Positions 2,902 to 37,568 of a stretch of DNA of 64,000 nt are shown piece after piece. The stretch spans positions 154,566,001 through 154,630,000 of the forward strand of contig JBNRSN020000007.1 in the NCBI GenBank assembly GCA_051313645.2, read 5' to 3'. Both the position numbers and the translations under genes were made by a program. This DNA is from Centroscyllium fabricii. Taxonomy: Eukaryota. The notes under the pieces were generated by a model. The model did no database searches, was not told where the DNA came from, and worked only from the letters and a program-made list of their open reading frames with translations. Numbering within the stretch: the first letter of the stretch is position 1; the number at the start of each line of letters is the position of its first letter.

Positions 2902-3706
2902 ATAGAGTCTATGACTCTATGACTCTATATTGCATCTGCCACATTTCTGTCCAATCACCCAACCTGTCCAAATCATCCTTGAGTTTCTCGGTATCCTCCT
3001 CGCAGCACACACGCCCACCCAGCTTTGTGTCGTCTGCAAACTTGGAGATATTACATCTAGTTCCCTTATTTAGATTATTAATGTATATTGTGAATAGCTG
3101 GGGTCCAAGGACCGATCCCTGTGGTACTCCACTAGTCACTGCCTGCCACTCGGTAAAAGACCCGTTAATTCCTACTCTCTGCTTTCTGTCCGCCAACCAG
3201 TTCTCTATCCAAGTAAATACCTTGCCCCCAATCCCACGTGCCTTAACTTTACATGCTAATCTCTTATGCGGCACATTATCGAAAGCCTTTTGAAAGTCCA
3301 AATACACCACATCCACTGGTTCTCCCTTATCTATTTTCCCAGTTACATCTTCAAAAAACTCCTGTAGATTAGTCAAGCATGATTTACCTTTTGTAAATCC
3401 ATGTTGACTTTGCCCTATCCTGTCACTACTTTCCAAGTGCTCAGCTATTACATCATTTATAATGGGCTCTAGCATTTTCCCCAGTACCGATATCAGGCTT
3501 ACCAGTCTGTAATTCCCCACTTTCTCTCTGCCATCCTTTTTGAATAGTGGGGTAACACTAGCTACCCTCCAATCCATGGGTACAGTTCCAGATTCCAGCG
3601 AATGTTGGAAGATGATCAGCAATGCATCTACTATTTATAGGGCCACTTCGTTAAGTACCCTAGGATGTACATTATCAGGCCCTGGTGATTTATTGGCCTT
3701 CAATCC

Positions 3707-5362
3707 AGTATTTGTAGGGATATGGTGTTGGGGACCTTGAAGAGATTAAAGACCGACAAATCCCCAGGGCCTGATAATCTACATCCTAGGGTACTTAAGG
3801 AAGTGGCCCTGGAGATAGCAGATGCATTGCTGATCATCTTCCAGAACTCGATAGACTCTGGAACAGCACCCATGGATTGGAGGGTAGCTAATATTACACC
3901 ACTATTCAAAAAAGGGGGTAGAGATAAAGTGGGGAATTATAGACCATTAAGTCTGACATTGGTAGGGGGGAAAATGCTAGAGTCCATTATTAAAGATGTA
4001 ATATCAGTACACTTGAAAAACAGTGACGGGACCGGACAGAGTCAATATGGATTTACAAAAGGTAAATCGTGCTTGACTAATCTACTGGAATTTTTTGATG
4101 ATGTAACTGGTAAAATAGATTGGGGAGAACCAGTAGACGTGGTGTATTTGGACTTTCAGAAGGCTTTCGATAAAGTCCCACATAAGAGATTCGCATGCAA
4201 AATTAAGGCTCATGGGATTGGGGGCAAGGATTTGACTTGGATAGAGAACTGGTTGGCAGACAGAAAACAGAGAGTTGGAATAAACAGGTTGTTTTCCGAG
4301 TGGCAGGCAGTGACTAGTGGGGTACCGCAAGGATTGGTCCTAGCACCCCAGCTGTTCACAATATATATATTAATGATCTGGATGAGGGAATTGGATGTAA
4401 TATCTCCAAATTTGCAGATGACACAAAGCTGGGTGGCGGGGGGTGGGGGGGGGGGGTTGTTATGCTGTGAGGAGGATGTCAAGAAACTCCAATGCGATTT
4501 GGACAGGTTGGGGGATTGGGCAGATACATGGCAAATGCACTATAATGTGGATAAATGTGAGGTTATCCACTTTGGTGGCAAAAACAGGAGGGCAGATCAT
4601 TATTTGAATGGCAATAGATTGGGAGATGGGGAAGTGCAAAGAGACCTGGGTGTTCTTGTGGAGCAGTCACTGAAGGTAAGCATGCAGGTGCAACAGGCGG
4701 TTAAGAAGGCAAATGGTATGTTGGCCTTCGTAGCAAGAGGGTTCGAATATAAGAGCAAGGATGTCTTGCTGCAGCTCTACAGGACCTTGGTGAGACCACA
4801 CCTCGAGTATTGTGTGCAGTTTTGGTCGCCTCATCTGAGGAAGGACATTCTTGCCATTGAAGGAGTGCAGCGAAGATTCACCAGGCTGATACCTGGGATG
4901 GCAGGAATGAAGTATGGAGAGAGATTGAGTCGATTGGGCTTATACGCACTGGAGTTCAGACGATTGAGAGGGGATCTCATCGAAACCTATAATATTCTTT
5001 CAGGCCTGGACAGACTGGAGGCAGGAATGATGTTCCCGATGGTCGGGGAGTCCAGAACCAGGGGCCATAGTCTAAGGATAAGAGGAAAGCCATTTTGGAC
5101 TGAGATGAGGGGGAATTTCTTCACCCAGAGAGTGGTGAACCTGTGGAATTCTCTGCCACAGAGGGCGGTGGAGGCCGGTTCATTGAATATATTCAAGAAG
5201 GAGTTGGATATATTTCTTCAGGCTGAAGGAATCAAGGGATATGGGGAGAAGGCAGGGACAGGGTACTGAATCTGAAAGATCAGTCATGATCTAATTGAAT
5301 GGCGGAGCAGGCTTGAAGGGCCATACGGCCTACTCCTGCTCCTATCTTCTATGTTTCTATGT
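3707..5362 (+). mobile_element. CR1 LINE 3' part inserted antisense into the host CR1
   Basis: RT ORF 3722-5269, 3' UTR, and TTCTATGTTTCTATGT tail. Host CR1 stops at 3706 and resumes at 5363. Confidence 0.92.
3722..5269 (+). pseudogene. CR1 ORF2 reverse transcriptase remnant
   Basis: KSPGPD, NYRPLSL, YLDFQKAFD, GVPQG, RPHLEYCVQFW. The KFADD segment (~4408-4422) is out of frame between compensating frameshifts, the second near the poly-G at 4430-4456. Confidence 0.88.
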
Positions 5363-5853: not shown

Positions 5854-6090
5854 TGTGGTAATTGTGTAATAACCACTGTATATAGTTGCTGGTTCACCTG
5901 TACTGTATTGCAGGCCAGGTCAGCCACACCCCTAACTCCTCCCCTCAGGTCGGTGTATATAGGTGAGCGCTGTCCTGCCCCCGCTCATTCTTCACCTTGA
6001 CCTCATCAGGAGACCAGCTCCATTCTTAGTTAATAAAAGCCTGTAGTTTAGGTAACTACTCGACTTTGTGTATTAATTGACGATACGTCA
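5854..6090 (+). mobile_element. Solo LTR related to the LTRs of Gypsy element 2
   Basis: TGTGGTAA...GATACGTCA, 5-bp TSD ATTCC (5849-5853, 6091-6095), TATATA box and AATAAA. Shares blocks with the reverse complement of 18217-18498. Confidence 0.9.
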
Positions 6091-7351
6091 ATTCCTGTTG
6101 AGTGATCCAACACCGTTAGACTGATCCCACACCTGTAGAGTGATCCTTCAGCTGCAGAGTAATCCCTCACCTATAGCATTATCCGTTACCAATAGACTGA
6201 TCCATCACCAGTAGAGTGATGCTACACATTCAGAGTGATTCCTCACCTGTAGAATGATCACACACCTGTAGAGTGATCCCACACCTGTAGAATGATCCCA
6301 CACCTGTAGAGTGATCCTGCACCTGTGGAGTGATCCCTCACCTGTAGTGTAATCCCACACATGTAGGTAGAGTGACCCCACAGCTGTAGAGTGATGCAGT
6401 ACCAGTAGATTGATCCTTGACCTGTAGAGTGATCCCACAACTGTAGAGTGATCCATCAGCTGTAGAGTGATCCCACACCTGTAGAGTGATCCTGCACCTG
6501 TGGAGTGATCCCTCACCTGTAGAGTGATATCTCACCTGTAGATGTAATCCCTCAACTGTAGAGTGATCCCGAACCTGTAGAGTAATTCCACATCTGCAGA
6601 TTGATCCCTCAGCTGTAGGGTGATCCTACACCTGCAGAGGGATCTCTCACCTATAGAGTGAATTCACACCTGTAGAGAGATCCCTAAACTGTAGAATGAT
6701 GCCACAACTGTAGTGTGATCCCTAACCTGTAGATTGATTCCACACCTGCAGAGTGAACCCACAACAGTAGAGTAATCCCTCAGCTGTAGCTTAATCCCTT
6801 GCCTGTAGAGTGATTCCTGGCCTGTAGAGTGATTCCTGGCCTGTAGAGTGATTCCACACCTGCAGTTAAATTACTCACCTGTAGGGTGAACCCACACCTT
6901 CAAAGGAATCCCTCACCCATAGATTGAACCCACACCTGTAGATCCATTGCACACCTGTAGAATGATCCCTGAACTGCAGGGTGGTCCCACACCGGTACAG
7001 TGATCCCATACCTGTTGAATGATCCACACCTGTAGAGTGATCCCTCACCAGGAGAGTGACCCCACACCGGTAGAGTGATCCCACACCGATAGAGTTAACC
7101 CTCACCTGTAGTATGATCCTTCACCTGTAGAGTGATCACACACATTGTACACTAAAACACTCAACTGTAGAGTTACCCCACACCTGTAGAGTGACAATTC
7201 ACCTATAGAGTTATCCCTCACCTGTAGTGTGATCGCACACCTGTAGGATGGTCCCACACCTGCAGAGGGGTTCCACAACTGTAGTGATTCCACATCTGTA
7301 GAGTGATCCCCAACCTGTTGAGTGTTTCCACCCCATAGATTGATCCTGTTA

Positions 7352-9428
7352 AGAGACTGGGAGGCCTTTAGACCGTAGGGCTAACAGGATGGCCTTCCAG
7401 ACCGTGGCATTATCCCTCTCCACCTGTCCGTTCCCCCGGGGGTTGTAGCTGGTAGTCCTGCTAGTAGCGATGCCTTTCGCTAGCAGGAACTGATGCAGCT
7501 CGTCACTCATGAAGGAGGCCCCCCGGTCGCTATGAATGTAGCTGGGGTAGCCGAACAGGGAGAAAATGCTGTGGAGGGCCCTTAATGACGGTGGCAGAGG
7601 TCATGTCCGGGCAGGGGATGGAGAAGGGGAAACGCGAGTACTCGTCGATAACATTCAGAAAGTACATGTTTCTGTTTGACGAGGGAAGGGGCCCTTTAAA
7701 ATCGACGCTGAGTCGCTCAAAGGGGCGGGTGGCCTTGATCAGGTGCGCCCGGTCTGGCCGAAAAAAGTGCGGCTTGCACTCCGCACAGACCTGGCAGTTT
7801 CTGGTCATGGTCTTGACCTCCTCGATGGAGTAGGGAGGTTGCGGGACTTAACAAAGTGGACCAACCTGGTGACCCCCGGGTGGCAGAGGTCATTGTGCAG
7901 GGTTTGGAGATGGTCCACTTGTGCGCTGGCACATGTACCGCGTGATAGGGCATCTGGGGGCTCATTGAATTTCCCGGGCCGGTACAAAATATCATAATTG
8001 AAAGCGGAGAGCTCAATTCTCCACCTCAGTATCTTGTCGTTCTTGATTTTACCCCGCTCTTTGTTGTTGAACATAAAAGCGACTGAGCGTTGGTCAGTCA
8101 GCAGGGTAAATCATTTGCCGGCCAGGTAGTGCTTCCAGTGTCGCACTGCTTCAACAATGGCCTGGGCCTCCTTCTCGACTGAAGAGTGACGGGTCTCGGG
8201 GCCCTGGAGGGTACGTGAGAAGAAGGCCACGGGTCTGCCCGCCTGGTTAAGGGTGGCGGCCAGGGCAATGTCCGATGCATCGCTCTCGACCTGGAATGGG
8301 ATGGACTCGTCCACAGCGTGCATCGTTGCCTTTGCAATGTCATCCTTAATGCCGCAGAACGCCGCGCGGGCATCTGCTGACAGGGGGAATGAGGTCAATT
8401 TAAGTAGTGGGCGGGCTTTGTCCGCATAGTTGGGGACCCACTGGGCATAATAGGCGAAGAACCCCAGGCACCTTTTGAGGGCCTTGAGGGAGTGGGGGAG
8501 GGGAAGCTCCAGGAGGGGGCGCATGTGGTCCGGGTCGGGACCGATGACCCCATTCTCCACAACACTGCCGAGGATGGCGAGGCGGGTGGTCCTGAACACA
8601 CATTTTTCCGTGTTATATGTCAGGTTCAGTGTTTTGGCGGTGTGGAGAAATTTCTGGAGGTTGGCGTCATGGTCCTGCTGGTCCTGGCCACATATTGGTC
8701 ACGTTATCGAGATACGGAAATGTGGCCCGCAGCCCGTACTGATCGACCATTCGGTCCATCTCCCTTTGGAAGACCGAGACACCATTCGTGACGCCAAACG
8801 GGACCCATAGGAAGTGATAGAGGCGGCCATCAGCCTCGAAGGCCGTATAGAGACGGTCCTCTGGGCGGATGGGGAGCTGGTGATACGCGGACTTCAGATC
8901 TATAGTTGAAAAGACCCGAAACTGCGCGATCTGATTTACAATGTCCGCTATCCGGGGAAGGGGGTAAGCGTCTAACTGGGTGAACCGGTTAATGGTCTGG
9001 CTATAGTCCACTACCATTCGGTTCTTAGCTCCGGTCTTCACCACCACTACCTGCGCCCTCCAAGGGCTGTTACTGGCCTCGATGACCCCCTCCCTCATGA
9101 GGCGCTTCACCTCGGACTTGATGAAGTCCATGTCCCCGGTACTGTAGCGCCTACTTTTGGTGGCGATGGGCTTGCAGTCCGGGGTGAGGTTAGCAAAGAG
9201 CGAGGGAGGGGCGACCTTAAGGGTTGAGAGGCCACAGGTAGCGCGCTGAGGATGCTGCGAGGAGCGCTGGTTGCAGACCGTGAGCGGGGGAAGGGGCCCA
9301 CCGTATGCCATGGTAAAGCTCTGGAGGTGGCACTGGAAGTCCAGGCCCAGTAATAATGGAGCGCAGTGCTGCGGCAGCACGAATAATTTGAAATTGCTAA
9401 AGTGCACGCCCCGTACCGTTAGAGTCAC
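7352..9428 (-). pseudogene. pol: pol (RT-RNase H-integrase) of Gypsy 1, several frameshifts
   Basis: ORF pieces 8667-9428, 8111-8599, 7805-8074 and 7530-7808 with IDLKSAYHQ, PFG, YLDN, SVDFKGP, IDEYSRF. Confidence 0.9.
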
Positions 9429-10612
9429 CGCGCAACGTCCGCAGATTCCACGGATTCCGACTTTGATGCCATAGAGATCTTTTGGCTCGCCGGCGTAACC
9501 TTAAGAGAGAGGCGCCTTACCGTTTCTGGGTGGACGAAACTCGCCGTACTCCCGCTGTCGAAGAGGCACTCGATGCTCCGCCCGTTCACTTCCACTGTCA
9601 TCATCGATCTGCTGAGTGGTTGTGCCTTGTTCTTATCCAAGTTGATGGATGCCAGTGTAGGGTCGGTCGAGTCGTTTTGATCCGTTGAGAGGTCGTCTGG
9701 GGCCTGGTCCCAAGATGGCTGCCGCCATGTGTTGTACTGCGGAAGGGGTGGCTGAGACCAAGATGGCGTCTGCTGCCACGCGGTGGGCTGTGTTGAAGAT
9801 GGCTGTGTCCAAGATGGCTGCCCCCATGGCCCACATGCGGCACTGCCCGGTTTCGATTGCAGCGTTGCAGTTGCTCTGCAGACTTTGGCATAGTGTCCTT
9901 TCTTGCCGCATTTCGAGCAGGCCGCGTCTTTTGCAGGGCAGTTCCGTCTCGGGTGCTGAGACTGCCCACAGAAGTAACATTTGGCCGTCTTAGAATGAGC
10001 GGCCGCAGTCATCTCTTCCGCCGGTCGCGGCTCCGGCGATGTCCAAGTTGTCGGGGCTGGGCCCGCGTAGTTGCCGAAATATGATGACAGATTCAGCGAT
10101 GCCACATCCAGTGCTTTGCCCAGATCCGCTGTCGCCTGCAGGTCAAGGCCGTTCTGTTCTAACAGCCTTTGGCGAATATAGTCCGACCTGAGGCCAGTTA
10201 CATACGCGTCCCTGATCAGGCTGTCCACGTGGACCTGGGCCGACTGCGATCTGCAGTTACAGGCCTGGGAGAGTACTCTCAGCGCGCGTATGAACTCCAC
10301 GCTGGACTCACCTGGTTGCTGTCTTCTGGTAGCCAGGAGGTGTCTGGCGTGGACGATGTTGGGTGCCCGGTTGTACTCCGCTTTGAGGATCCAGATTGCA
10401 TCTAGGTACGATGATGCGTCTACGATCATGGAGTATACCTGAGGGCCCACCCGGGCATTGAGGAGATGCCGTTTGTCCTCCTCGGTCGTGACGACCGCCA
10501 CGTTCACATTGATGAACGCATCAAAGCAGTCGAACCAGTGCGTAAAGGTATTTGATGCACCTGGTGTCCGGGGTTCCAGCTCGAACGTTGCTGGTTTGAG
10601 CATCAATTTCAT
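9425..10612 (-). pseudogene. gag: gag-protease of Gypsy 1
   Basis: ORF with CYFCGQSQHPRRNC and CSKCGKKGHYAKVC, then LFDSGS. First ATG at 10612, ~22 nt after the LTR. Confidence 0.88.
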
Positions 10613-10634
10613 CGTCAAATTTAGCTAATAAAAT

Positions 10635-10923
10635 TGTTACCGAATTAACGACCTCGGAGACGAGTTATTAAGAGGTGAAAAATACAGGCTTTTATTAGCT
10701 AAAGTTGGACATGCACCAGCTAGTCGACCGTCCCCAGGAATGGCCGCGGAAAGGGAGACGGCCGCTTATGTACCTGGTCCTGGGAGGGAGGAGTCACAGG
10801 CGGTGCCAGCATGGGCATGTCCAGGTGATCACACACAAATAACTATAATACAACATGGTTTAAGGGTGGTTACAGTGAGTTACAATAATATACAGATATA
10901 TACATAAAGAGTGGTTTACCACA
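10635..10923 (-). repeat. 5' LTR of Gypsy 1 (289 bp)
   Basis: Sense TGTGGTAA...GGTAACA. TATA-like TACATAAG at ~10766-10773. AATAAA at ~10691-10696. Confidence 0.88.
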
Positions 10924-11876
10924 GATCCCACATCTTTAGAGTAATCCCACACCTGTAGACTGATCACTAACCTGTAGAGTGATCCCACATCTGTAGAGTG
11001 ATCCCTAAAATGTAGAGTGATTCCACTCCTGCAGATTGATCCCTCACCTGTAGGATGATCCCACACCTGCAGAAGGATCCTTCACCTGTAGAGTAAACTC
11101 ACACCTGTAGAGAGAACCCTAACCTGTAGTGTGATTCCACACCTGTAGTGTTATCCCTATACTGTAGCATGATTCCACACCTGTAGATTGATCCCTCACC
11201 TGTAGAGTGATCACTCACCTGAAAAGTGATCCCATGTGTGCAGAGTGATCACCCACCTGTAGAGTGATCCCACACTTGTAAAGTGATCCCACATGGGTAG
11301 AGTGATCCCTCATCTGAAAGTGATCCCTCATCTGTAAAGTGATCCCTAGCCTGTAGAGTGATCCCTCACCTGTAGTGTGATCACACACCTGTAGAATGAT
11401 GCCACACCTGTAGAATGATCCTCACCCACAGAGTGATCCTCACCTGAAGAGTGATCCCACTAATGTAGAGTGTTCCCACACCTGTAGAATTATCCCTAAA
11501 CTTTAGAATGATTCCACACATGTAGAGTGAATCCACACCTGTAGAATGATCAGTAACCAGTAGAGTGATATCACACCTGTAGAGTGATTCCACACCTGTA
11601 GAGTGTTTCCACACCTGTAGAGTGAATCAGATGTAGAGTGACCCCACACATATATGTTCCCACCCCTGTAGAGTGATCACACATATATAGAATGGTCCCT
11701 CACCAGTAGAGTGATCCCACACCTATAGAGTGCTCCCCCACCTGTACAGTGATCCCTCACTTGTAAAATGATCCCCCACCTGTAGAGTGATTCCTTATCT
11801 GTATAGTGATCCCTCACCTGCAGAGTGAGTCCTCCCCTTTAGTGTGACCCCACTCTGGTAAATTGCTCCCCCACCT

Positions 11877-14800
11877 TTTTTTTTGTCCGTTTCTATTGGA
11901 AACCGCGCCGGATTTGGGAGCACGCAGGACTGCAGGAAACGCAGCTTGTGGCGGCCCGGCCCCCGACGCCGCCTGGTACAGCCGGCCCTGACCCCCGGCA
12001 CCGCCCGGGACACCACCCGGTACAGCTGGCCCGGCCCCGACACCGCCCGGTACAGCCGACACCGACCCCGACAACGCCCAGGACACCGACACTGCCCGGT
12101 ACATCCTTTGACAAGATGGCGGCGCGCATAGACGCAGCGGCTCAGTGCTCTCCTTTTCGGTGCTTCGTTTGGCTGTTTGTGTGTGTGTTGATACTTGTCC
12201 CGACAGCATCCTGCTGGGTGAACAACGTCTACAGCCGGCACGATCTCCTAGGAATAGGATTACATAGCGAGCGGGATGTTACAGCCGAGTTTCTCCGCTC
12301 CCGCGGCATCCCGGTGGATATCGGCAGGCGCCCCGGCTCTCCGTGGATTACCATCTCCGCGGGAAGGCGACGAAGGTGGCGCAGGGAAAGGAGGCAAAAG
12401 CGAGGCTGCAGAGCCGGCGTGCTGGTGAGGCTACGGAGACGGCCACACAAACCGCCGCTTCCTAGTGTCTTCCTCGCCAACGCAAGATCCCTCGCTAACA
12501 AAATGGATGAGCTGAAACTACAGGTTGCAATGAACAACATGCTGAAGGACAGCTGCATTCTGCTCTTCACAGAGACCTGGCTTCATTCATCCATTCCAGA
12601 CACAGCTATTGAGCTAGCAGGCCGCACAGTACACCATCATGACAGGACCAGGGACTCCGGTAAGAGCAGAGGAGGGGGGTTATGCATCTATGTGAACAAC
12701 AGCTGGTGTACAAATACTAAGACTGTAAGCAGCCACTGCTCCCCGGACCTGGAGTATGTGACTGTTAAATGCAGGCCCATATATCTTCCTCGGGAGTTCA
12801 CTGTTGTCATGATAACTGCTGTGTATATTCCACCAGATGCTAATGCTAGCTCGGCCCTTGGACATTTACATGAAACCATTAGCAGTCAACAGAGTATGTA
12901 TCCTGAGGCTGTTCACATTATTGCAGGGGACTTTAACCATGCTGATTTAAAGGCAGTGCTCCCCAAATTCCATCAACACGTTAAGTGTGCTACCAGGGGA
13001 GCAAATACACTGGACAAGGTCTACTCTAACATCAAGCTGGGCTTTAGGGCTAAGCCACTACCACACCTGGGCCAGTCAGACCACATGTCCCTGCTCCTGA
13101 TTCCAGCATATACCCCCCTCAGGAAAAGTGCTCTTACCATATCTAGATCTGTAAAAACCTGGCCCGAAGGTGCCTTTCAACAACTGCAGGACTGCTTTGA
13201 GTCAACAAACTGGGATGTCTTCGAACATCAGGACCTGGAGCAGAACACAACAGCTGTCCTGGGATACATCAAGTACTGCATGGACACTGTCACTGTGGAC
13301 AAGTGCATCCGGGTTTATCCCAACAGAAAGCCCTGGATGACAAAAGAAGTGCAGTGCCTGCTCAGGGAGAGGAACACCGCCTTCAGGTCTGGTGATGGGG
13401 CACTATACAGTGCTGCCAGAGCCAATCTGAAGATGGGCATCGGAGCGGCCAAGGCTGCTTACAGAAGGAGGATTGAGGACTGTTTCCAGAGCAACGACTC
13501 CAGGCAGGTGTGGCAGGGGGTCCAGCACATCACTAACTACAGACCCAGCAACCTCTCGGCTGATGACGGTGACGCCTCACTGGCAGAGGAGCTGAACCGC
13601 TTCTTCGCCCGCTTTGAGGTGGAGTCACCGGAGGTAGCCACACTGAACCCACCAGCCCACAGCAGTTATGTCCTCACGGTGGAGGAGTATGAGGTGAGGC
13701 GCACGCTGAGGGCCGTGAACCCGAGGAAAGCTGCGGGACCTGACGGCGTCTCGGGACAGGGGCTGAGGGTCTGTGCAGATCAGCTGGCAGGGGTCCTCAC
13801 CAAGATCTTCAACCAGTCCCTGTCTCAGGCGGCTGTCCCACCCTGCCTGAAGGCCTCCACAATCGTCCCACTCCCGAAGAAGAATGCCATTAGCAGCCTG
13901 AACGACTACCGTCCAGTAGCACTTACACCTATTATCATGAAGTGCTTCGAGAAACTGGTCCGGTCCCACATCATCTCAAATCTCCCACCCAGGTTTGATC
14001 CTCACCAGTTCGCCTACAGAGCTAAGAGGTCCACGGAGGACGCCATAGCCACAGCTCTCCACTTTGCCATGTCCCATCTGGAGCAGCAGGGGAGCTACGC
14101 ACGGCTGCTCTTTGTGGACTTCAGCTCGGCATATAATATCATCCTCCCCAACAGACTGGTGACCAAACTGACACACCTGGGAATATCCCACTCCATCTGC
14201 CTCTGGGTTCAGGACTCCCTGTCGAATCGCTCCCAGAGGGTGAGGGTAGGCCCCCACATCTCCTCAGACCTCAGCCTCAGCACTGGCTCCCCTCAGGGCT
14301 GTGTGCTGAGCCCCCTACTCTACACCCTCTACACCCACAGCTGCACCCCCGCCCACTCCAGCAACATCATCATCAAGTTCGCTGATGATACTACTGTGGT
14401 GGGGCTCATCTCTGGGGGGGATGAGTCCGCATACCGGGATGAGGTGGAGCAGCTGTCAGTGTGGTGTACAGAAAACAACCTGGTCCTGAACACTACTAAG
14501 ACTAAGGAGCTGATTATAGATTTTGGAGGAAAAGAACGAACATTCAGCCCCTGTTCATCGGCGGGGACTGTGTGGAGAGGGTCTCAGATCTCAAGTTTCT
14601 GGGTGTTTACATAGAGGATGACCTGAAATGGAGCGTCAACACCACTGCTATCACCAAGAAGGCACAGCAGAGACTGCACTTCCTGAGGGTTCTCAGGAGT
14701 TACCACCTCACACAAAAACTGCTTGTGTCCTTCTATCGTTGCTCCATAGAGAGCATTCTGACCTACTGCATCTGTGTGTGGTTCTCCAGCTGCACAGCTG

Positions 14801-15290
14801 CAAACAGGACAGCGCTCCAGAGGGTCGTCACCACAGCCCAAAAGATTACTGGCTGCCCTCTCCCCTCCCTGGAAGATCTGCACAGCTCCCGCTGTCTCAG
14901 GAAAGCACAGAGTATTCTTAGGGACGCATCTCACCCCGGACATTCCCTCTTTGAACTGCTGCACTCGGGCAGACGCTTCAGGACACTGAAAGCACGGACC
15001 AATAGATTAAAGAACAGTTTTAATGTCAGAGCCATAACCGCACTAAACACAGAAAAAAGCTTGAACATCTTGTAAATATTTTGATCTGGATCGTGCAATA
15101 CCTGTAGAATGTGAATGTGTGTGTGTAATGTGTTTCCTGTCTCCTCTTTGAAGCTGCTAATTATTTATTTCATAGTTTTTAATTATTTGTTTTTTTAGAT
15201 AGTTTTATGTTTCTCTTTCTTGCAATTTTAAGGATTGCATTTCAATTTTGTTGTACTTGTACAATGACAATAAAGACTTATTATTATTAT
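11877..15290 (+). mobile_element. Near full-length Rex1/Babar-type LINE
   Basis: APE domain (LANARSL, FTETWL, GDFNH, LDKVY, SDH) plus RT (PQG, KFADD). 3' CAATGACAATAAAG and (TTA)n tail. Possible TSD ACCT (11873-11876, 15291-15294). Confidence 0.88.
12116..15075 (+). pseudogene. Rex1-type endonuclease-reverse transcriptase ORF with one frameshift
   Basis: Open from ATG 12116 to ~14525. An apparent 1-bp deletion separates it from the C-terminal ORF ending at 15075 (…IQPLFIGGDCVERVSDLKFLGV…). Confidence 0.88.
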
Positions 15291-17628
15291 ACCTGTAGAC
15301 GGATCCCTCACCTGTAGAGTGATCCCTCACCTGAAGAGTGATGCAGATGTAGAGTGATCCCACACATATAATATGTTCCCACACCTGAAGACTGATCCAA
15401 CACCTGTAGAGTGGTCCCACATATATAGCATAAACCCACACCTGTACATTGATCCCTCATCAGTAAATTGATCTCAGACCTGTAGAGTACTCCCCCACCT
15501 GTAGAGTGCTCCCCACCTGTAGAGTGATCCCCCACCTGTAGAGTACTCCACCACCTGTAGAGTGATCCCCACCTGTAGAGTGCTCCCTCACCTGTAGAGG
15601 GCTCCCTCACCTGTAGAGTGATCCCTCACCTGTAGAGTGATCCCTCACCTGTAGAGTGATCCCTCACCTGTAGAGTGATCCCCACCTGTAAAGTGCTCCT
15701 CCACCTGTAGAATGCTCCCTCACCTGTAGAGTGATCCCTCACCTGTAGAGTGCTCCCTCACCTGTAGAGTGCACCCTCACCTGTAGAGTGATCCCCCACA
15801 TGTAGAGTGATTCCTCACCTGTAGAATGCTCCATCACCTGTAGAGTGATCCCTCACCTGTAGAGTGATCCCTCACCTGTAGAGTGCTCCCTCACCTGTAG
15901 AGTGCTCCCTCACCTGTAGAGTGATCCCTCACCTGTAGAGTGATCCCTCACCTGTAGAGTGATCCCTCACCTGTAGAATGCTCCCTCACCTGTAGAGTGA
16001 TCCCTCACCTGTAGAATACTCCCTCACCTGTAGTGATCCCTCACCTGTAGAGTGATCCACCACCTGTAGAGTGCTCCCCCACCTGTAGAATGCTCCCTCA
16101 CCTGTAGAGTGATCACTCACCTGTAGAGTGCTCCCTCACCTGTAGAGTGATCCCTCACCTGTAGAGTGATCCCTCACCTGTAGGGTGATCCCCCACCTGT
16201 AAAGTGCTCCCCCACCTGTAGAATGCTCCCTCATCTGTAGAGTGATCCCTCACCTGTAGAGTGCTCCCTCACCTGTAGAGTGCTCCCTCACCTGTAGAGT
16301 GATCCCTCACCTGTAGAGTGATCCCCCACCTGTAGAGTGCTCCCCCACCTGTAGAGTGCTCCCTCACCTGTAGAGTGATCCCCCACCTGTAGAGTGATCC
16401 CCCACCTGTAGAGTGCTCCCTCACCTGTAGAGTGATCCCCCACCTGTAGAGTGATCCCCCACCTGTAGAATGCTCCCTCACCTGTAGAGTGATCCCCCAC
16501 CTGTAGAGTGATCCCTCACCTGTAGAATGCTCCCTCACCTGTAGAGTGATCCCTCACCTGTAGAGTGATCCCTCACCTGTAGAATGCTCCCTCACCTGTA
16601 GAGTGCTCCCTCACCTGTAGAGTGATCCCCCACCTGTAGAGTGATTCCTCACCTGTAGAATGCTCCCACACCTGTAGAGTGATCCCTCACCTGTAGAATA
16701 CTACCTCACCTGTAGAGTGATCCCTCACCTGTAGAGTGATCCGCCACCTGTAGAGTGCTCCCCCACCTGTAGAATGCTCCGTCACCTGTAGAGTGATCCC
16801 TCACCTGTAGAGTGATCCCCCACCTGTAGAGTGATCCCTCACCTGTAGAGTGATCCCTCACCTGTAGAGTGATCCCTCACCTGTAGAGTGCTCCCCCACC
16901 TGTAGAATGCTCCCTCACCTGTAGAGTGATCCCTCACCTGTAGAGTGATCCCCCACCTGTAGAGTGCTCCTCCACCTGTAGAATGATCCCTCACCTGTAG
17001 AGTGATCCCTCACCTGTAGAATGCTCCCTCACCTGTAGAGTGATCCCTCACCTGTAGAATGCTCCCCCACCTGTAGAGTGATCCCTCACCTGTAGAGTGC
17101 TCCCCCACCTGTAGAGTGCTCCCTCACCTTTAGAATGCTCCCTCACCTGTAGAATGCTCCCTTACCTGTAGAGTGATCCCCCACCTGTAGAGTGCTCCCC
17201 AACCTGTAGAGTGATCCCTCACCTGTAGAATGCTCGCTCACCGGTAGAATGCTCCCCCACCTGTAGAGTGATCCCCCACCTGTAGAGTGATCCCTCACCT
17301 GTAGATTGCTCCCTCATCTGTAAACTGATCCTACGTGGGTGGAGTGATCCCACATCTGTAGTGACACCTTATCTGTAAAATGATCCCTAGTCTGCATTGT
17401 TATTGCTCGGCTGTAGAGTGATCCCTAATCTGTAGAGTGATCACATACCTGTAGAGTGATCCCACACCTGTAGAGTGATCCTCACCTGTAGAGTGATCCT
17501 CTCCTGATGAGTGATTCCACTACTTTAGAGTGATCCCAAACCTGTAGAATGATCCATAACCTGTAGAGTGATTCCACACCTGTAGAATGATCCCACACCT
17601 GTGGAATGATCCCTAACCTGTAGAGTGA

Positions 17629-18075: not shown

Positions 18076-18498
18076 ATTCTACACCTGTAGCTTGATCTCA
18101 CACCTGTAGAATAATCCCTAACCAGTAGAGTGATTCCACACTTTTAGAGTGACTCCGCACCTGTAGCGTGATCCCACACCTGTAGAATGGTCCCTAAGCT
18201 GTAGAGTGATTCCACATGACGTATCGTCAATAAGACAAAGACGAGTAGTTACCTTAACTAGAGGCTTTTATTCACTTTACAATGGAGCTACTCTCCAGTC
18301 GAACATTGAGTACATAATGAATGGGGGCAGGTCAGACCTCACCTATAAGGCGCTCACCTGAGGGGAGGAGTTAGAGGTGTGGCTGACCTGACCTCGCGAC
18401 AGTGTCGTTATACAAAACTATATACAATGCACCCAGCCACTATACATGCTGGTCTGTAGTCTGCTCAACTATATATACTTGTAATCATGATTACCACA

Positions 18499-22766: not shown

Positions 22767-25111
22767 TTCGAAAATTTAAAGTGTATAAAATTGACGTATC
22801 ATCAATAAGACAAAGACAAGTAGTTACCTTAACTAGAGGCTTTTATTCACTTTACAATGGAGCTACTCTCCAGTCGAACATTGAGTACTGAATGAATGGG
22901 GGCTGGTCAGACCTCACCTATAAGGTGCTCACCTGAGGGGAGGAGATAGAGGTGTGGCTGACCTGACCTCGCGACAGTGTCATTATACAAAACTATATAC
23001 AATGCACCCAGCCACTATACATGCTGGTCTGTAGTGTGCTCAACTATATATACTGGTAATCATGATTACCACACCACACCTGTAGATTGATTCCATACCT
23101 GTAGACTGATCCCTCAACTCTAGAGTAATTCCACACCTGTAGAGTGATTCCACACCTGTAGATTGAATCCCACATCTGTAGAGTGATCCCACAACTGTGG
23201 AAATATCCTGCACCAGTAGAGTGATCCCACACCTGTCGAGTGATCCCACACATGTTGTGGGATCACTCACATGTAGATTAATCCCACACATTTAGAGTGA
23301 TCCCACACCTGTAGAGTGATCCCACACCTGTAGTCTGATCCCTCAACTGTAGAGTAATTCCACACCTGTGGTGATTCCACACCTGTAGATTGAATCCCAC
23401 ATTTGTAGTGATCCCACAACTGTGGAAAGATCCTGCACCAGTTGAGTGATCCCACATCTGTAGAGTGATCCCACACATGTTGTGTGATCACTCACATGTA
23501 GATTAATCCCACACCTTTAGAGTGATCACACAATTGTAGAGTGATCCCACATCTGTAGATTGATCCATCACCTGTAGATTGATCACTCACATGTAGAGAT
23601 TCCTCACCCATAGAGTGATCGCTTAACTGTAGAGTGATGCCACACCTGCAGATTAATTCCACATCTGTAGAGTAATACATCAGCTATAAAGTGATCACAC
23701 ACCTGTTGTGTGATCCTACAACTGTAGAGTAACCCCTAACCAGTAGAGAGATCCCACAGCTGTAGAGTGATCACTTATCTGTGGAGTGACCCCACACCTG
23801 TAGAACAATCCCTTACCTGTAGAGTGACCCCACAGCTTTAGAACAATCCTAATCCTGTAGAATTATCCCTCAGCTTTAGAGTGACCCCACACCTGTAGTG
23901 AGATCACTCAACTGTATTGTGAACGCTGTCCTCTAGATTCATCCTCATTTGTAGAGTGATCCCTCACCTGTAGAGATATCCCTCAGCTTTAGAGTGATGC
24001 AGTAACAGTAGCGTGTTCCCTTACCTGCAGAGTGATCCCACAGCTGTAGAGTGTGCCACACCTGCAGAATGATCCCTCAGCTGTAGGTTGATCCCACACC
24101 TGTAGAGTGATCCATCACATGTAGAGTGCGTCCAAACCTGTAGAGTGATCCCACAGCTGTCGAGTGATCCCTTGCCTGTAGAGCCATCCCTCACCTGTAG
24201 ATTGATCCCACACCTATAGAGTGATCCCTCACCTGTAGAGTGGTTCCAAACCTGTAGTGATCCTATAGCAGTAGAGTGATGCAATACCAATAGAGTGATC
24301 CCTTACCTGTAGATTGATCCCACACCTGTAGAATGATCCCACACCTGTAGAGGGGACCCTCACCTGTAGGGTGAACCCACACCTGTGGAGGGATTCCACT
24401 TATTTAGAGTGATCCCTAAACATAGAAACATAGAAGATAGTAGCAGGAGTAGACCATTCGGCCCCTCAAGCCTGCTCCGCCATTCAATGCAATCATGGCT
24501 GATCATTGAATTTCAGTACCCTGTCCCTGCCTTCTCCCCATATCCCTTGATCCCTTTAACCTTAAGAAATATATCCAACTCTTTCTTGAATATATTTAAT
24601 GAATTAGCCTCTACTGCCTTCTGTGGTAGAGAATTCCACAGGTTCACCATTCTCTGGGTGAAAAAATTCCTCCTCACCTCTGTCCTAAATGGCTTACTCC
24701 TTATCCTTAGACTGTGACCCCTGGTTCTGGACTTCTGGACTCCCCCCTCCCCCCCCCACCCCCCGCATCAAGAACATCCTTCCTGCATCTAGTTTGTCCA
24801 GTCCTGTTAGAATTTTATAAGTTTCAATGAGATCCCCTCTCATTCTTCTAAACTCCAGCGAGTATAAACCCAATTGACCCAATCTCTCCAACATCATTCC
24901 TGCCATCCCAGGTATTAGCCTGGTGAATCTTCGCTGCACTCCTTCTGTGGCAAGATCATCCTTCCTTAGATAAGGCAACCAAAACTGTACACAATATTCA
25001 AGATGTGGTATCACCAAGGCCCTGTAAAACTGCAGCAAGACATCCTCGTTCCTGTACTCAAACCCTCTCGCTACAAAGGCCGAGCATTTTAAGAGGAAGA
25101 ATACAAAAAAA

Positions 25112-26790: not shown

Positions 26791-28672
26791 TACCATTTGC
26801 CTTCTTAACCGCCTGCTGCACCTGCATGCTTACTTTCTGCGACTGGTGCACAAGGACGCCCAGGTCTTGTTTCACTTCCCCTTCTCCCAATCTATTGCCA
26901 TTCAGATAATAATCTGCCTTCTTGTTTTTGACACCAAAGTGGATAAACTCACATTTTTCCATGTTGTATTGCATCTGCCATGCTTCTACCCAATCACCCA
27001 ACCTGTCCAAATCATACTGGAGTTTCTCGGCATCCTCCTCACAGCACATACGCCCAACCAGCTTTGTGTTGCCTGCAAACTTGGAGATATTATGATCCCA
27101 CATCAGTAGAGTGATCCCTAACCTGTAGTGTGTTTCCACCCCTGCAGTTTGATCCCTCAGCTGTAGGGTGATCCCACACCTGCAGAACGATCTCTCACAT
27201 ATAGATTGAACTCACACCTGTAGAGAGATCTCTAAACTGTAGAATGATCCCACACCTGTAGTGTGATCCCTAAACTGTAGTGTGATTCCACACCTGTAGA
27301 TTGATCACACATCTGCAGAGGAATCGCACACCTGTAGAGCGAACCAATAACTGGAGAGTAACTCCTCAACTATAGAGTAATCCCTCAGCTGCAGAGTGAT
27401 CCCTTGCCTTTTGAGTAATTCCACACCTGTAGTTAGATCCCTCACCTGTAGGGTGAACCCACACCTGCAGAGGCATCCCTCAAATGTAGAGTGAGCCCAC
27501 ACCTGTAGAGTGATTCCAAACCTGTAGAGTGATCCCTAAACCGTAGAGTGATCCCACACCTGTAGAGTGATTTCAAACCTGTAGAGTGATCCCTAAACCG
27601 TAGAGTGATCCCACACCTGTAGGGTGAACACACACCTGCAGAGGCATCCCTCAAATGTAGAGTGAGCCCACACCTGTAGAGTGATTCCAAACCTGTAGAG
27701 TGATCCCTAAACCGTAGAGTGATTCCACACCTGTAGAGTGATTCCAACCCTGTAGAGTGATCCATAAACCGTAGAGTGATCCCACACCTGTAGGGTGAAC
27801 CCACACCTGCAGAGGCATCCCTCAAATGTAGAGTGAGCCCACACCTGTAGAGTGATTCCAAACCTGTAGAGTGATCCCTAAACCGTAGAGTGATCCCACA
27901 CCTGTAGGGTGATCCCATACCTGTTGAGTGATCCACAACTGTAGAGTGATCCCTCACTGGTAGAGTAATCCTACACTGGTAGAGTAATCCCTCAACTTTG
28001 AAGTGATCCCTCACCTGTACAGTGATCCCACACCAGTAGAGTTAACCCTCACCTGTCGAGTGATCACACACATGCACACTAATCTCCTCAACTGTAGAGT
28101 TACTCCACACCTACAGAGTGACTAATCACCTGTAGAGTTCTCTCACCTGTAGCATGATCCCATAGCTGTAGGGTGAGCCCTCACCTGTATAGTGATCCAT
28201 CACCTGTAGAGTGATCCCACACCTTTAGAGTGATGCAATAGCAGTAGAATGATCCCTTACCTGTAGAGTGATGCCACAACTGTAGATTGATCCCACACCT
28301 GTAGAATAATACCTCAGCTGTAGAATGACCACACACCTGTAGAGTGATCACACACCTGTAGAATAATATCTAGGCTATAAAGTGATCACACACCTGTAGT
28401 GTGATCCCTTATCTGTAGAGTAATCCCTTACCTGTAGAGTGATCCCTTACCTGTAGAGTGATCCCTTACCTGTAGAGTGATCCCACACCTGCAGATTGAC
28501 CCTAATCCTGTAGAATGATCCCTCAGCTGTAGAGAGATCCCATACCTATGGAATGATCCCTTACCTGTAGAGTGATCCCACATCTGTAGAGTGATCCTAA
28601 TCATGTAGAATGATTCCCTCAGCTGCAGAGAGATCCCACACTTGTAGAGTGATACCACACCTGTAGAATTAT

Positions 28673-29052
28673 AACACAGAAAACACAGACACAGAAGATA
28701 GGGGCAGGAGTAGGCTATTCGGCCCTTCAAGCCTGCTCCTCCATTTTGATGAGATCATGGCTGATCATCCAAACCCAGCAACCCCCTCCTATGCTCTCCC
28801 CATATCCCCCAACACCCCCAACTCTAAGAACTATATCTCACACACATACTCGTGGGCAGTTTTTTTTAATATCTCCAATTCACCTAACCTGCATGTCTTT
28901 GGGTGGTGGGAGGAAACCAGAGTACCCGGAGGAAACCCACATGAACATAGGGAGAACATGCAAACTCCACGCAGAGAGGTCCCAGGCCAAGCAGGATTCG
29001 AACCCAGGAGCTCCTTATTGTGAGGCAGCAGTGCTAACCACTGTGCCACCGT
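28673..29052 (-). mobile_element. V-SINE subfamily A, second copy
   Basis: Reverse complement aligns along its length with 25112-25486. Inserted directly in the satellite. Confidence 0.9.
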
Positions 29053-32000
29053 ATCCCTCAGCTGTAGAGAGTTCCCTCACCTGTAGGGTGAACACTCACC
29101 TGTAAAGTGATCCCCCACCTGCAGGGAGATCCTGCACCTGCAGTGTGATCCCACACCTGTAGAGAGATCACTTAACTGTATTGTGAACCCGCCCCTGTAG
29201 AGTCATCCTCATCTGTTGAGTGATTTCACACCTGTAGAGTGATCCCACACCATTAGAGTGATCATACAACTGTAGGGAGATCCCACACCTGTAGAGTATT
29301 CCCTCACCTGTATAGTGATCCCTAAGCTGTAGAGTGACCCCACACCTGTAGAGTGATCCTACACCTGTAGAATGGTCTCCCAGCTGTAGAGTGATCCATA
29401 GTCTGTAGAGTGTTTCCACACCTGTAGTTTGATCCTCACCTTTAGAGTGGCTCCACACCTGTAGAGTGATACCATAGCAGTAGAGTGATACAATACCAGT
29501 AGAGTGATCCCTTACCTGTAGATTGATCCCGCACCTTTAGAGTGATCCCACACCTGTAGATGGGACCCTCACCTGCAGAGTGATCCCTCACTTGTGGAGT
29601 AATCCCTCAACTGTAGAGTAATCCCTCAACTGTAGAGTGATCCCTAACCTGTAGAGTAATTCCACACCTGTAGGTAGACCCCTCACCTGTAGGGTGAACC
29701 CACACCTACAGTGCTCCCTCACCTGTAGAGTGAAGCCACACCTGTAGAGTAGTCCACACCTGTAGAGTGATCCCTAAACTGTAAAGTGATCCCACATCTT
29801 TAGAGTGATCCCACATATGTTGAGTGATCCCACAGTAGTAGAGTGATCTGTAACCTGTCGACTGTTTCCCCCCTGCAGACTGTTCCCTCACCTGTAGGGT
29901 GAACACATATGCAGAGGGTTCTCTCACCTGTAGAGAGAACCCTCACCTGTAGAGTGATCCCTAGCCTGTAGAGTAATTCCACACCTGTAGTTAGATTCCT
30001 CACCTGTAGGGTGAACCCACACCTGCAGAGGAATCTCTCACCTATAGAGTGAACCCACACCTGTAGAGTGATGCCACACCTGTAGATTGATCCTATACCC
30101 GTTGAGTGATCCACAACTGTAGTGACCCCTCACCTGTAGAGTGAACCCATACCAGTAGAGTTAACCCTCACCTAAAGTGTGATCCCTCAACTGTAGAGTG
30201 ATCACACACATGCACACTAACCCCCTCAACTGTAGAGTTACCACACACCTGTAGAGTGACTAATCACCTATAGAGTTATCCCTCATCTGTAGAGTGATCC
30301 CATAGCTGTAGACTGACCCCTCACCTGTAGAGTGATCCCTCACCTGTAGAGTAATCCCTCACTGTAGAGTGATCCCTAACCTGTAAATTAATTCCACACC
30401 TGTAGATAAATCACTCGCCTGCAGAGTGAGCCACACCTGTAGAATGATCCCTAAATTGTAAAGTGATCCCACATCTGTAGAATGATCCCATACCTGTTGA
30501 GTGATCCTACACCAGTAGCGTGATCCCTACTCTGTAGAGTGTTTCCACCCCTGCAGATTGATCCCTCGCCTGTAGGGTGATCACACACCTGCAGAGGGAT
30601 CTCTCACCTAGAGTGATCTCACACCTGTAGAAAGATCTCTAAACTGTTGAATTATCCCACACCTGTAGTGTGATCCTAACCTTTAGCATGATTCCACACC
30701 TTTAGATTGATCCCACACCTGCAGAGGAATCGCACACCTGTAGAGTGAACACAACTATAGAGTAACTCCTCAACTGTAGAGTAATCCCTCAGCTGTAGCA
30801 TAATCCCAAACCTGCAGAGTGATCCCTAGCCTGTAGAGTAATTCCACACCTGTAGTTAGATCCCTCAACTGTAGAGTGTGCCCACACCTGTGGAGTGATC
30901 CCATACCTGTTGAGTGATCCACAACATTAGAGTGATCCCTCACCAGTAGAATGATCCCATACCAGTAAAATGATCCCTCACCTGTATAGTGATCCCTCGT
31001 CTGTAGAGTGATCCTGCAATGGTAGAGTTAACCCTCACCGGCAGTGTGATCCCTCACCTGTAGAGTGATCACACACAGGTACACTAACCCTCTCAACTGT
31101 AGAGTTGCACCACACCTGTAGAGTGACTAATCACCTGTAGAGATATTCCTCACCTGTAGAGGGATCCCATAGCTGTAGAGTGATCCCTAACCTGTACAGT
31201 GACCCCTTGCCTGCAGAGTGATCCCACAACTTTAGAGTGATGCAATATCAGCAGAATGATATCTTACCTGTAGAGTGATGCCACACCTATAGAGTGATTC
31301 CACACCTGTTGAATGATCCCTCAGCTGTAGAATGGTCACACACTGTAGAGTGACCCCACACCTGTAGGGTAATACCTCAGCAATAACGTGTTCACACACC
31401 TGTAGAGTGATCCCACACCTTAAGAGTAATCCCTCAACTGCAGAGAGATGCCACACCTGGAGAGTGAGCCCTTACCTGTAGTGTCATCCCACACCTGTAA
31501 AATTATCCCTTACCTGTAGAGTAATCATAATCCTGTAGAATGATCCCTCAGCTGTAGAGCGATACCACACCTGTTGAATGATTGCACAACTCTAGAGTGA
31601 TCCCACACCTGTAGAGTGGTCCCTCACCTGTAGTGTGATCCCTCACATGCAGAGAGATCCCACACTTGCAGAGTGATCCCACACCTGTAGGGAGATCAGT
31701 ATTGGGGACCCTCCCCATAGAGTCATCCTCATCTGTAGAGTGATACCACACCTGTAGAGTATTCCCCCACCTGTAGAGTATTCCCCCACCTGTAGAGTGT
31801 TCCCTCAGCTGTAGAGTGATCCTGCATCTGTCGAGAGATCCCAAACCTGTAGAGAGATCCCAAACCTGGAGAATGCTCACACAGCTGTACAGTGAACCCT
31901 CGCCTGTAGAGTGATCCCTCACCTGTAGAGTGATCCCTCAACTGTAGAGTGGTTCCACAGCAGTAGAGTGATGCAATACCTGCAGAGTGATAACTTACCT

Positions 32001-32419
32001 GTAGATTGATCCGACACCTATAGAGTGATCCCACACTACAGAGGGGACCCTCACCTGAAGAGTGATCCCTCACCTGCAGAGTAATCCCTCAACTGTAGAG
32101 TGATCCATAACCTGTAGAGTAATTCCACACCTGTAGATCGATCACTCACCTGCAGTGTTAACCCACACCTACAGAGCTCCCTCACCTGTAGAGTTAACCC
32201 ACACCTGTAGAATGAACCCACACCTGTAGAGTGACTCCACACCTGTAGAATGATTGATAAACTGTCAGGTGATCCCACATCCGTAGAATGATCCTAAACT
32301 GTAGAGTGATCCCACACCTGTAGAATGATCCCTAAACTCTAGGCTGATTCCACACCTGTAGAGTGATCTGTCACCTGTAGTTTGTTAGCTCACCTGCAGA
32401 GTGAAACCTCACCTTTGGA

Positions 32420-33660
32420 GTGATCCCACACTGGTAAAGTGCTCCTCCACCTATAGAGTGATTCCTCACCTGTAGACTGATCCCACACCTGTACAGTGAT
32501 TCCTCACCAGTGAAGTGAGCCCATACATGTAGAATGCCCCCCACCTGTAGAGTGATCCCTCACCTGTAGTGTGATACCTCGCCTGTAGAGCGATCCCTCA
32601 CTGTTGAGTGATCCCATAACTGCAAAGCGACTCCTCACCTTTAGAGTTATCCCACATGGTAAAGTGCTCCCCCACCTGTAGCATGATCTCTCACCTGTAA
32701 AATGATCCCATGTCGGTAGAGTCATCCCTCACCTGTGGAGTGATCCTACAGCTGTAGCATGATCCCTTACCTGTAGCGTGATACCACACATGTAGAATGA
32801 TCCCTAACCTGTAGAGTGATTCCACACCTGTAGAGTGATCCCACACTGGTAAAGTGCTCCTCCACCTATAGAGTGATCCCTCACCTGTAGACTGATCCCA
32901 CACCTGTACAGTGATTCCTCACCAGTGAAGTGAGCCCATACATGTAGAATGCCCCCCACCTGTAGAGTGATCCCTCACCTGTAGTGTGATACCTCACCTG
33001 TAGAGTGATCCCTCACTGTTGAGTGATCCCATAACTGCAAAGCGACTCCTCACCTTTAGAGTTATCCCACATGGTAAAGTGCTCCCCCACCTGTAGCATG
33101 ATCTCTCACCTGTAAAATTATCCCATGTCGGTAGAGTCATCCCTCACCTGTGGAGTGATCCTACAGCTGTAGCATGATCCCTTACCTGTAGCGTGATACC
33201 ACACATGTAGAATGATCCCTAACCTGTAGAGTGATTCCACACCTGTAGAGTGATCCCACACTGGTAAAGTGCTCCTCCACCTATAGAGTGATCCCTCACC
33301 TGTAGACTGATCCCACACCTGTACAGTGATTCCTCACCAGTGAAGTGAGCCCATACATGTAGAATGCCCCCCACCTGTAGAGTGATCCCTCACCTGTAGT
33401 GTGATACCTCGCCTGTAGAGTGAACCCTCACTGTTGAGTGATACCATAACTGCAAAGTGACTCCTCACCTTTAGAGTTATCCCACATGGTAAAGTGCTCC
33501 CCCACCTGTAGCATGATCTCTCACCTGTAAAATGATCTCACGTGGGTAGAGTCATCCTTCACCTGTGGAGTGATCCTACAGCTGTAGAATGATCCCTTAC
33601 CTGTAGCGTGATACCACACCTGTGGAATGATCCCTAACCTGTAGAGTGGTTCCACACCTG
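32420..33660 (+). repeat. 415-bp higher-order satellite repeat, ~3 copies
   Basis: Marker CACCTGTACAGTGATTCCTCACCAGTGAAGTGAGCCC at 32486, 32901, 33316. Confidence 0.9.
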
Positions 33661-36600: not shown

Positions 36601-37568
36601 ACACCTGTAAAGGGATCCCACACCTGTAGAGTTATCCCTTATCTGTAGAGAGATCACACACCTGTAGAGTGATCACACATTTGTAGAGTGATCACTCAAC
36701 TGTATAGTGATCCCACACCTGTTGATAGATCCCTCACCTGCAGAGTGATCCCTCACCTGAAGAGTGATCCTAGACCTGTAGAGTGATCCCTCACCTGTAG
36801 AGAGAACCCTCATCTGTAGGTTGATCCCTCAACTGTAGAGTGATCCCAAACATGTAGAGCAAACCTATACCCGAAGAGTGATTCACCACCTGTAGAACGA
36901 TCCTACACCTGTAGAGTGATCCCTCAGCTGTAGTGATCCCACACCTGTAGAGGAATCACACAACTGTAGAGTGATCCCTCAACTGAAGAGTGATCACACA
37001 CCTGTAGAGTGATCCCTCAGCTTAACTGATCCCTCACCTGTAGAGTGATTGCTCATCTGTGAAGTGATCCCACACCTGTAGCATGAGCCCACACTTGTAC
37101 AGTGATCCCTCTTCTGTAGAGATACCACACCTGTAGAGAGATCACACACCTGTAGAGTGATCCCTCAGCTGTAGTGATCCCTTACCTGTAGAGTGATCGC
37201 TCAGCTGTAGTGATCTGACACCTGTAAATGGATCCAACGCCTGTAGAGTGATCCCTCATCTATAGAGAGATCACACACCTGTAGAGTGATCCCTCAACTG
37301 TAGAGTGATCCCTCAACTGTAGTGTGATCGCTCAACTGTAGAGTGATCCCTCAGCTGTAGTGATCCCTCGACTATAGTGATACCTCAGCTGTAGAGTGAT
37401 CCCACACCTGTAGAGAGATTCCTCACCTGTGGAGTGATCCCTCACCTGTAGAGAGAACTCTCATCTGTAGGTTGATCCCTCATCTGTAGAGAGATCACAC
37501 CCCTGTAGAGTGATCCCTCAGCTGTAGTGATCCCACACCTGTAGAGGGATCCCACACCTGTACAGTGA

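Follow-up and report, generated by a model that had tools for sequence, protein, structure and literature searches.

Self-priming of reverse transcription is regarded as a hallmark of the Tf1/sushi group of LTR retrotransposons. HIV-1 primes on a tRNA, and its 5' poly(A) hairpin lies within R. For Tf1, passages of PMC7175516 describe pairing of the first 11 RNA bases with the primer site and a cut by RNase H between bases 11 and 12, and excerpts of PMC10085805 describe the Tf1/sushi group as carrying chromodomains and as having a structure of three duplexes in which the RNA 5' end supplies the primer. According to a portion of PMC11042837, a copy of the primer is kept at the end of about half of Tf1 cDNA. 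Parts of PMC6317226 predict self-priming from complementarity for plant Tcn1 and for the TAR/Houba/Osr-1 Copia elements; as for the elements described here, this prediction lies outside the fission yeasts, in those cases in another lineage or superfamily.

We analyzed two Ty3/Gypsy elements in a 64,000-nucleotide stretch of the Centroscyllium fabricii genome (the window), along with their relatives. Comparison of the sequences indicates that such an element pairs its primer site with its own LTR and likely uses roughly the 52 bases at the 5' end of its own RNA as primer. As in Tf1/Tf2 of Schizosaccharomyces pombe, Tj1 and Tf1/sushi elements, there is no tRNA site and the LTR-adjacent primer site pairs with the element's own R region; a helix beside the cut (predicted here) and a primer copy that may stay on the DNA end are also shared with Tf1/sushi, as portrayed in parts of PMC7175516, PMC10085805 and PMC11042837. 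Unlike Tf1/sushi elements, the present clade has its paired 12–18 bases at a predicted distance of approximately 38 nt inside the RNA, where they overlap the poly(A) signal, and it carries two zinc knuckles and neither a chromodomain nor an SH3_Tf2-1 domain. Its loop is 24–72 nt long, compared to 125–171 nt in the sushi-type elements of this genome. In contrast to the HIV-1 5' poly(A) hairpin, the partner strand here is not part of the LTR, which restricts formation of the stem to the 5' end.

Anatomy of the elements in the window

The window copy of element 1 has no 3' LTR and breaks within integrase, at a 19-nt satellite, and its LTR boundary was therefore set from relatives (Table 1). Among 12 copies of the element-1 family, each extended by 6 kb, a full LTR pair and a purine tract were found in 5, with an exact 5-bp target duplication in 3 of those 5. 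The genome holds 1,433 candidates for this family and 2,133 exact LTR/primer-site junctions. The original prediction described a 5' LTR whose terminal CA is not followed by TGG, a perfect 14-nt complement between the primer site and the LTR, and a gag start about 22 nt after the LTR. All three hold for the window: the complement is exact, and the gag ATG is at 10612, 22 nt downstream of the LTR. Segment and primer site are separated by a 56-nt loop, and all 14 positions pair in 27 of 30 family copies. The hexamer within the segment is the sole AATAAA/ATTAAA of the element 1 LTR. No Rfam match was found at E<=1 within 10500–11000.

Element 2 had been predicted to show the same pairing with different letters. 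The pairing is indeed kept in its family, 16 of 20 copies matching at 14/14, but the window copy itself has one mismatch. Its LTRs are 96.5% alike, and a 5-bp target duplication surrounds the element; poly(A)-tailed retrocopies of element 2, sought to map its 3' end, gave 0 matches. A partial LTR from a third family of the same clade lies beside the satellite at 5912–6093 (+); it is 77% like the element 2 LTR, and the letters of its segment differ again from those of elements 1 and 2. Both Gypsy elements are embedded in the 19-nt satellite, which makes up about half of the window (6094–7324, 10924–11828, 15291–17628, 23074–24399, 27093–42014 and 43493–63984). RT frames resembling non-LTR (LINE-type) elements, as judged by eye, are found at 11843–15075 (+), 3689–5269 (+) and 2909–3634 (−).

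Table 1. Features of elements 1 and 2, in window coordinates.
Feature	Position	Strand	Remark
5' LTR of element 1	10635..10923	-	289 bp, TG..CA; boundary from LTR pairs and target duplications in family copies
TATA-like box, element 1	10765..10772	-	equivalent position in 19 of 21 own-genome representatives (62–83 nt upstream of segment)
Initiator-like site, element 1	10737..10743	-	putative RNA start at 10741 or 10742; inverted copies stop at 10740–10742
Putative self-primer, element 1	10690..10742	-	approximately 52–53 nt, made up of 38–39 unpaired nt and the 14-nt pairing segment
LTR segment complementary to primer-binding site	10690..10703	-	contains AATAAA at 10696–10691
GCCT directly after segment	10686..10689	-	predicted to form the 5' strand of another helix that stacks on the duplex; putative cleavage point 10690/10689
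Single spacer nucleotide (A), element 1	10634	-	CA-A in 30 of 30 representatives
Primer-binding site, element 1	10620..10633	-	complement of own LTR; no TGG
gag-pol, element 1	7353..10612	-	two zinc knuckles, protease, RT, RNase H and the first part of integrase; frameshifted, ends inside integrase
5' LTR of element 2	22792..23073	-	pairing segment at 22854–22841
Primer-binding site, element 2	22777..22790	-	13/14 complementary in window copy
3' LTR of element 2	18217..18498	-	carries the same segment, without a downstream partner

Conservation of the pairing across families

We compared 80 metagenome loci and 140 loci from the C. fabricii genome. A gag start could be placed in 208 of the 220 loci, and the 201 with enough upstream DNA formed 37 rough clusters. 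An exact complement of at least 12 bases directly after the CA-N site was present in 113 of the 201 loci and in 28 of the 37 clusters (13 of 21 metagenome clusters); as a null, only 2 of 10,491 other CA-N sites in the same loci had an exact upstream complement of at least 11 bases. With a relaxed test (at least 11/12 paired, one miss and G-U allowed), the pairing was found in 172 of the 201 loci, compared to 155 of 1,320 null stretches, and in 33 of the 37 clusters; 4 of 37 clusters fell short of 11/12 pairs even under this test. Loop lengths ranged from 24 to 72 nt among the 113 pairing loci, and TGG was found within 6 nt of the junction in none of these 113. One clade member, which fails at 11/12, has a complement seemingly offset several bases from the LTR end, a possible variant geometry.

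From the pairing copies we drew 30 representatives for analysis of covariation, a check proposed with the original prediction, and 21 own-genome representatives for promoter geometry. The 30 representatives carry 24 different 12-mers, and their own pairing was 12.0/12 compared to 8.2 when segments and sites were matched across families. The junction reads CA-A in all 30, and RCC follows the segment in 28. A poly(A) hexamer (AATAAA or ATTAAA) lies inside the segment in 26 of the 30. These data support a pairing that is conserved while its letters change between families.

The duplex was also predicted by folding at 20 C, with a mean pairing of 0.92. A second helix was predicted directly after the segment (0.70 compared to 0.29 in loop shuffles, p = 1.4e-5), and this constitutes the one extra helix predicted when the leader is compared with the three-duplex structure of Tf1/sushi. 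The z-scores for folding of the whole leader were unremarkable (−0.65 and −0.59). A conserved U5 terminal hairpin did not rise above the control. Pairing of the LTR end was 0.29 compared to 0.36 in the control, and the last LTR bases were mostly open.

Several smaller regularities were noted in the own-genome representatives. A pyrimidine run and an AG upstream of the poly(A) hexamer resemble a 3' splice site, the AG being TG in some families, and an A is conserved 18 nt before the segment end. A primer made by splicing was ruled out because the LTR pairs in its unspliced form, several families have TG in place of AG with a compensating change, and an intron would not fit into 38 nt. We likewise rejected the conserved AG, 11 nt ahead of the cut, as the RNA start because the pairing extends 1–7 nt further upstream with changing letters.

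A potential concern is whether a tRNA, a tRNA half or some other host RNA serves as primer, with the hairpin merely hiding the poly(A) signal. Half-tRNA priming exists in plant Copia elements, as stated in parts of PMC6317226, and our comparison with host tRNAs covered the tRNA-Lys and tRNA-Cys genes only, the best match of the halves of these two tRNAs to the primer site being 5 nt. However, a host RNA would be required for each of the 24 different 12-mers, all 113 pairing loci lack a TGG at the junction, and the aberrant insertions described below carry LTR sequence rather than host RNA after the LTR end. Priming by a host RNA is accordingly considered highly improbable.

RNA start and inverted LTR copies

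We used promoter geometry as one means to locate the RNA start. The TATA-like box lies at a median of 70 nt upstream of the segment in the 19 own-genome representatives that have it at the position given in Table 1, and an Initiator-like A is found 26–32 nt downstream of the box in 12 of those 19. A TATA-like box at the Tf1 distance (24–38 nt before the segment) was found in 0 of 21. As a control, we examined 20 stretches around SH3_Tf2-1 matches in the same genome, taken as sushi-type elements. A primer site was recognizable in 9 of the 20, a 10-nt complement was present in the LTR in 6 of these 9, and a TATA-like box stood exactly 30 nt before the primer in 5 of the 6. This 10-nt self-primer signature of the sushi-type elements lies 125–171 nt from their primer site. 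The method thus recovers the Tf1 geometry in the sushi-type controls, indicating that the geometry of the present clade is a different one.

A primer longer than the duplex leads to the expectation that plus-strand DNA will sometimes copy beyond the 14 bases, and we therefore searched the genome for an LTR end followed by an inverted LTR copy extending 7 nt past the segment. The pattern was found at 218 genomic places, compared to 2,133 normal junctions and 0 places for a reversed-pattern control; note that the junction is imposed by the search pattern, so that the 3' end of the primer is not independently measured by these 218 fossil insertions. In the first 100 of the 218, the inverted copy ended at 21–50 nt in 25, at 51–53 nt in 24, at 55–215 nt in 12, and at the LTR start (234) in 39. 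End points of 51–53 nt correspond to window positions 10740–10742, the predicted Initiator. Flank/junction pairs were distinct in 98 of the 100, and the short inverted copies jump to varied sites in gag, pol or LTR, often with a few shared bases, indicating that the fossils arose as independent events. Among the 50 shortest fossils, 44 follow a whole LTR and 0 follow the purine tract. Exact 5-bp target duplications flank 8 of 12 short fossils that terminate in an LTR end, and the same holds for 8 of 15 whole-LTR fold-backs. Because these duplications surround the entire aberrant product, the product was formed before integration. Some of the fossils are palindromes of two LTRs joined head to head, bounded by a U3 end on either side and flanked by 5-bp target duplications, which indicates that integrase accepts two identical ends.

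Similar insertions were found for other families. A degenerate pattern identified 65 places. Among the 30 of these that we inspected, comparison with the respective LTR allowed scoring of 20, of which 8 ended at 51–56 nt. The element-2 family had 6 such places (27 nt, 50 nt and four full-length). Fossils thus amount to approximately 10% of normal junctions in family 1, with only 6 found in family 2. The end point is followed by an untemplated C, possibly copied from the cap, in 9 of 18 compared to 5 of 25, which is suggestive only. Short-read contigs at one fossil locus gave depth in the unique junction bin in 3 of 4 runs, with no piece spanning the stretch and one flank uncovered.

We read the fossils as a record of reverse transcriptase copying a self-primer of approximately 52 nt; strictly, what they document is that an RNA beginning at this position was copied, rather than its covalent attachment. 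Promoter geometry and the stops of the inverted copies agree, and together support a pairing segment situated about 38 nt inside the RNA, unlike in Tf1, with the RNA of element 1 putatively starting at 10741/10742. The original prediction, which placed the partner about 40 nt inside the RNA on the basis of a TATA box near 10770, is thus supported. A Tf1-like arrangement, with the RNA beginning at the segment and its first 11–14 bases serving as primer, would fit the conserved A, G and T/C at 11–9 nt before the segment end, the second Initiator-like A that 13 of the 21 own-genome representatives have at −18, and the lack of a clear promoter geometry in the metagenome contigs. It is already unlikely for the families of this genome, where all 21 representatives lack the TATA-like box at the required distance and the fossils copy 38 nt past the segment to stop at the upstream Initiator, and overall we assign it very little probability.

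The stop at the RNA start would also be expected if the primer consisted of the 12–18 paired bases only, trimmed on both sides, and the plus-strand end switched to an intact RNA 5' end and ran to the cap to give the fossils. Such trimming is in keeping with the 2,133 normal copies, which hold just the 14-nt site and therefore must have shed the overhang somewhere along the way. This explanation nonetheless calls for one more cut and for a switch of template to a segment that, by prediction, lies buried in a hairpin (mean pairing 0.92), and such events would be needed at a rate of approximately one fossil per ten normal junctions; we regard it as unlikely.

The approximately 52-nt primer could alternatively be made by the host, with a short transcript that is cut at the poly(A) site of the 5' LTR, trimmed to the duplex, and used to prime in trans. 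Priming in trans has reportedly been seen for Tf1, and 26 of the 30 representatives have the end of the primer right at the poly(A) hexamer. The hexamer is missing, however, in the other 4, and the short loop (24–72 nt) and the conserved helix just past the segment favor a fold and cut in cis, making a host-made primer improbable.

Two further explanations were considered together: that the primer is the 3'-LTR copy of the segment, circularizing the RNA, or that the fossils are products of chromosomal palindrome repair unrelated to priming. A run-on into the purine tract was observed in 2 of 100 fossils of the element-1 family, both among the 39 full-length inversions, and in 1 of 6 of the element-2 family, as might be expected from these explanations. 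A stop at the RNA start is expected from neither of the two, and target duplications enclosing the aberrant product in its entirety place its formation before integration. Both versions are therefore considered extremely unlikely, and we retain the cis-acting self-primer of approximately 52 nt as the preferred reading.

Relationship to other Gypsy lineages

Membership in Ty3/Gypsy is indicated by the TG..CA LTRs, the target duplication, the purine tract, and the order protease-RT-RNase H-integrase, and the best solved-structure match of a full-length relative was Ty3 Gag-Pol. At a threshold of E<=0.1, all 6 full-length relatives searched lacked a Chromo or SH3_Tf2-1 domain, and neither is among the precomputed domains of the 120 listed of 126 Gag homologs; the named ones among these 120 belong to sharks, nematodes, cnidarians, molluscs, arthropods and tunicates. 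A scan of viral contigs gave 1 weak match. The RT is 27–34% identical to that of sushi-type and other control elements. Phylogenetic analysis of RT had been proposed as a check, and in a quick tree (84 rows, midpoint root) the clade of 69 rows split from the 15 controls with an SH-aLRT of 100, these controls being mostly SH3_Tf2-1-bearing elements of the same genome and including no named Tf1 or sushi sequence. These data support the predicted separation of the clade from the Tf1/sushi chromoviruses. Another LTR family of this genome has a TGG-type primer site after its LTR, so tRNA-primed elements coexist here with the present clade.

Both zinc knuckles, that is two CCHC arrays in Gag, are conserved in the alignment. 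Two such arrays are described for Mag and Micropia in a portion of PMC2577118, and the Mag-lineage and Cigr-1 clades resemble the present clade in the two CCHC arrays, a single ORF and a wide animal range. The two knuckles suggest a position in the Mag/Cigr-1 neighborhood, the comparison being made by description (parts of PMC2577118 and PMC6238403). No report of self-priming in the Mag-lineage or Cigr-1 clades was found in the portions of the literature searched, and the supplement files of PMC6238403 and PMC8556966 that were searched gave no motif matches.

A possible route of self-priming

These findings can be assembled into a working scheme. Transcription would begin approximately 30 nt past the TATA-like box, at 10741/10742, and RNA bases ~39–52 would then pair with the primer site over the 56-nt loop, stacked on a second short helix starting with GCC. 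A cut at the helix junction, after ..AAUAAAA, would leave a 3'-OH one base off the LTR edge; by analogy with Tf1, the RNase H of the element is slightly favored as the enzyme that makes this putative cut. Minus-strand DNA would copy U5 and approximately 15–20 nt of R before the poly(A) site, and then transfer. Plus-strand synthesis may continue through the whole primer, in which case an unremoved overhang of 38 nt would allow the DNA end to fold onto its own LTR or to jump by microhomology; such a fold-back of an over-long plus strand is the putative source of the 39 full-length inversions. Integrase would still insert the aberrant product, giving rise to the fossils. Self-priming in some form is almost certain, and the primer is quite probably the approximately 52-nt species.

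The same duplex would mask the poly(A) signal in the 5' LTR only, a plausible second role. We consider the chances even that the duplex hides the 5' signal in this way; cap proximity could have the same effect, and the absence of the hexamer from the segment in 4 of 30 representatives weighs on the poly(A)-blocking reading.

The literature searched, represented in part by passages of PMC3601003, PMC6934838, PMC5341516, PMC5443660, PMC4600332 and PMC2923131 and by terms in PMC11117352, yielded no description of self-priming in a non-chromovirus animal Gypsy clade; Repbase, GyDB and subscription papers lay outside the scope of the search and could hold an earlier mention. We conclude that the self-priming of this clade would be a new variant, for which the genomic support is indirect but strong. 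More tentatively, at somewhat less than an even chance, we propose that an animal-wide Gypsy clade uses a second self-priming route, in which a cut at the poly(A) signal within the leader yields a capped primer of approximately 52 nt, a single helix serves both to form the primer and to silence the poly(A) site of the 5' LTR, the cost is approximately one mis-copied insertion per ten normal ones, and the fossils could be used to map the RNA starts and primers of any LTR element from genome sequence alone.

If this interpretation is correct, the aberrant insertions provide genomic evidence for a primer and an RNA start, an approach that would be transferable to other predicted self-primers. Annotation pipelines with tRNA-based PBS filters would overlook elements of this type, and the elements themselves would evade control exerted through tRNA supply and tRNA fragments. 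The use of a long, internally cut primer by a separate animal clade would mean that independence from tRNA arose again, with a different geometry.
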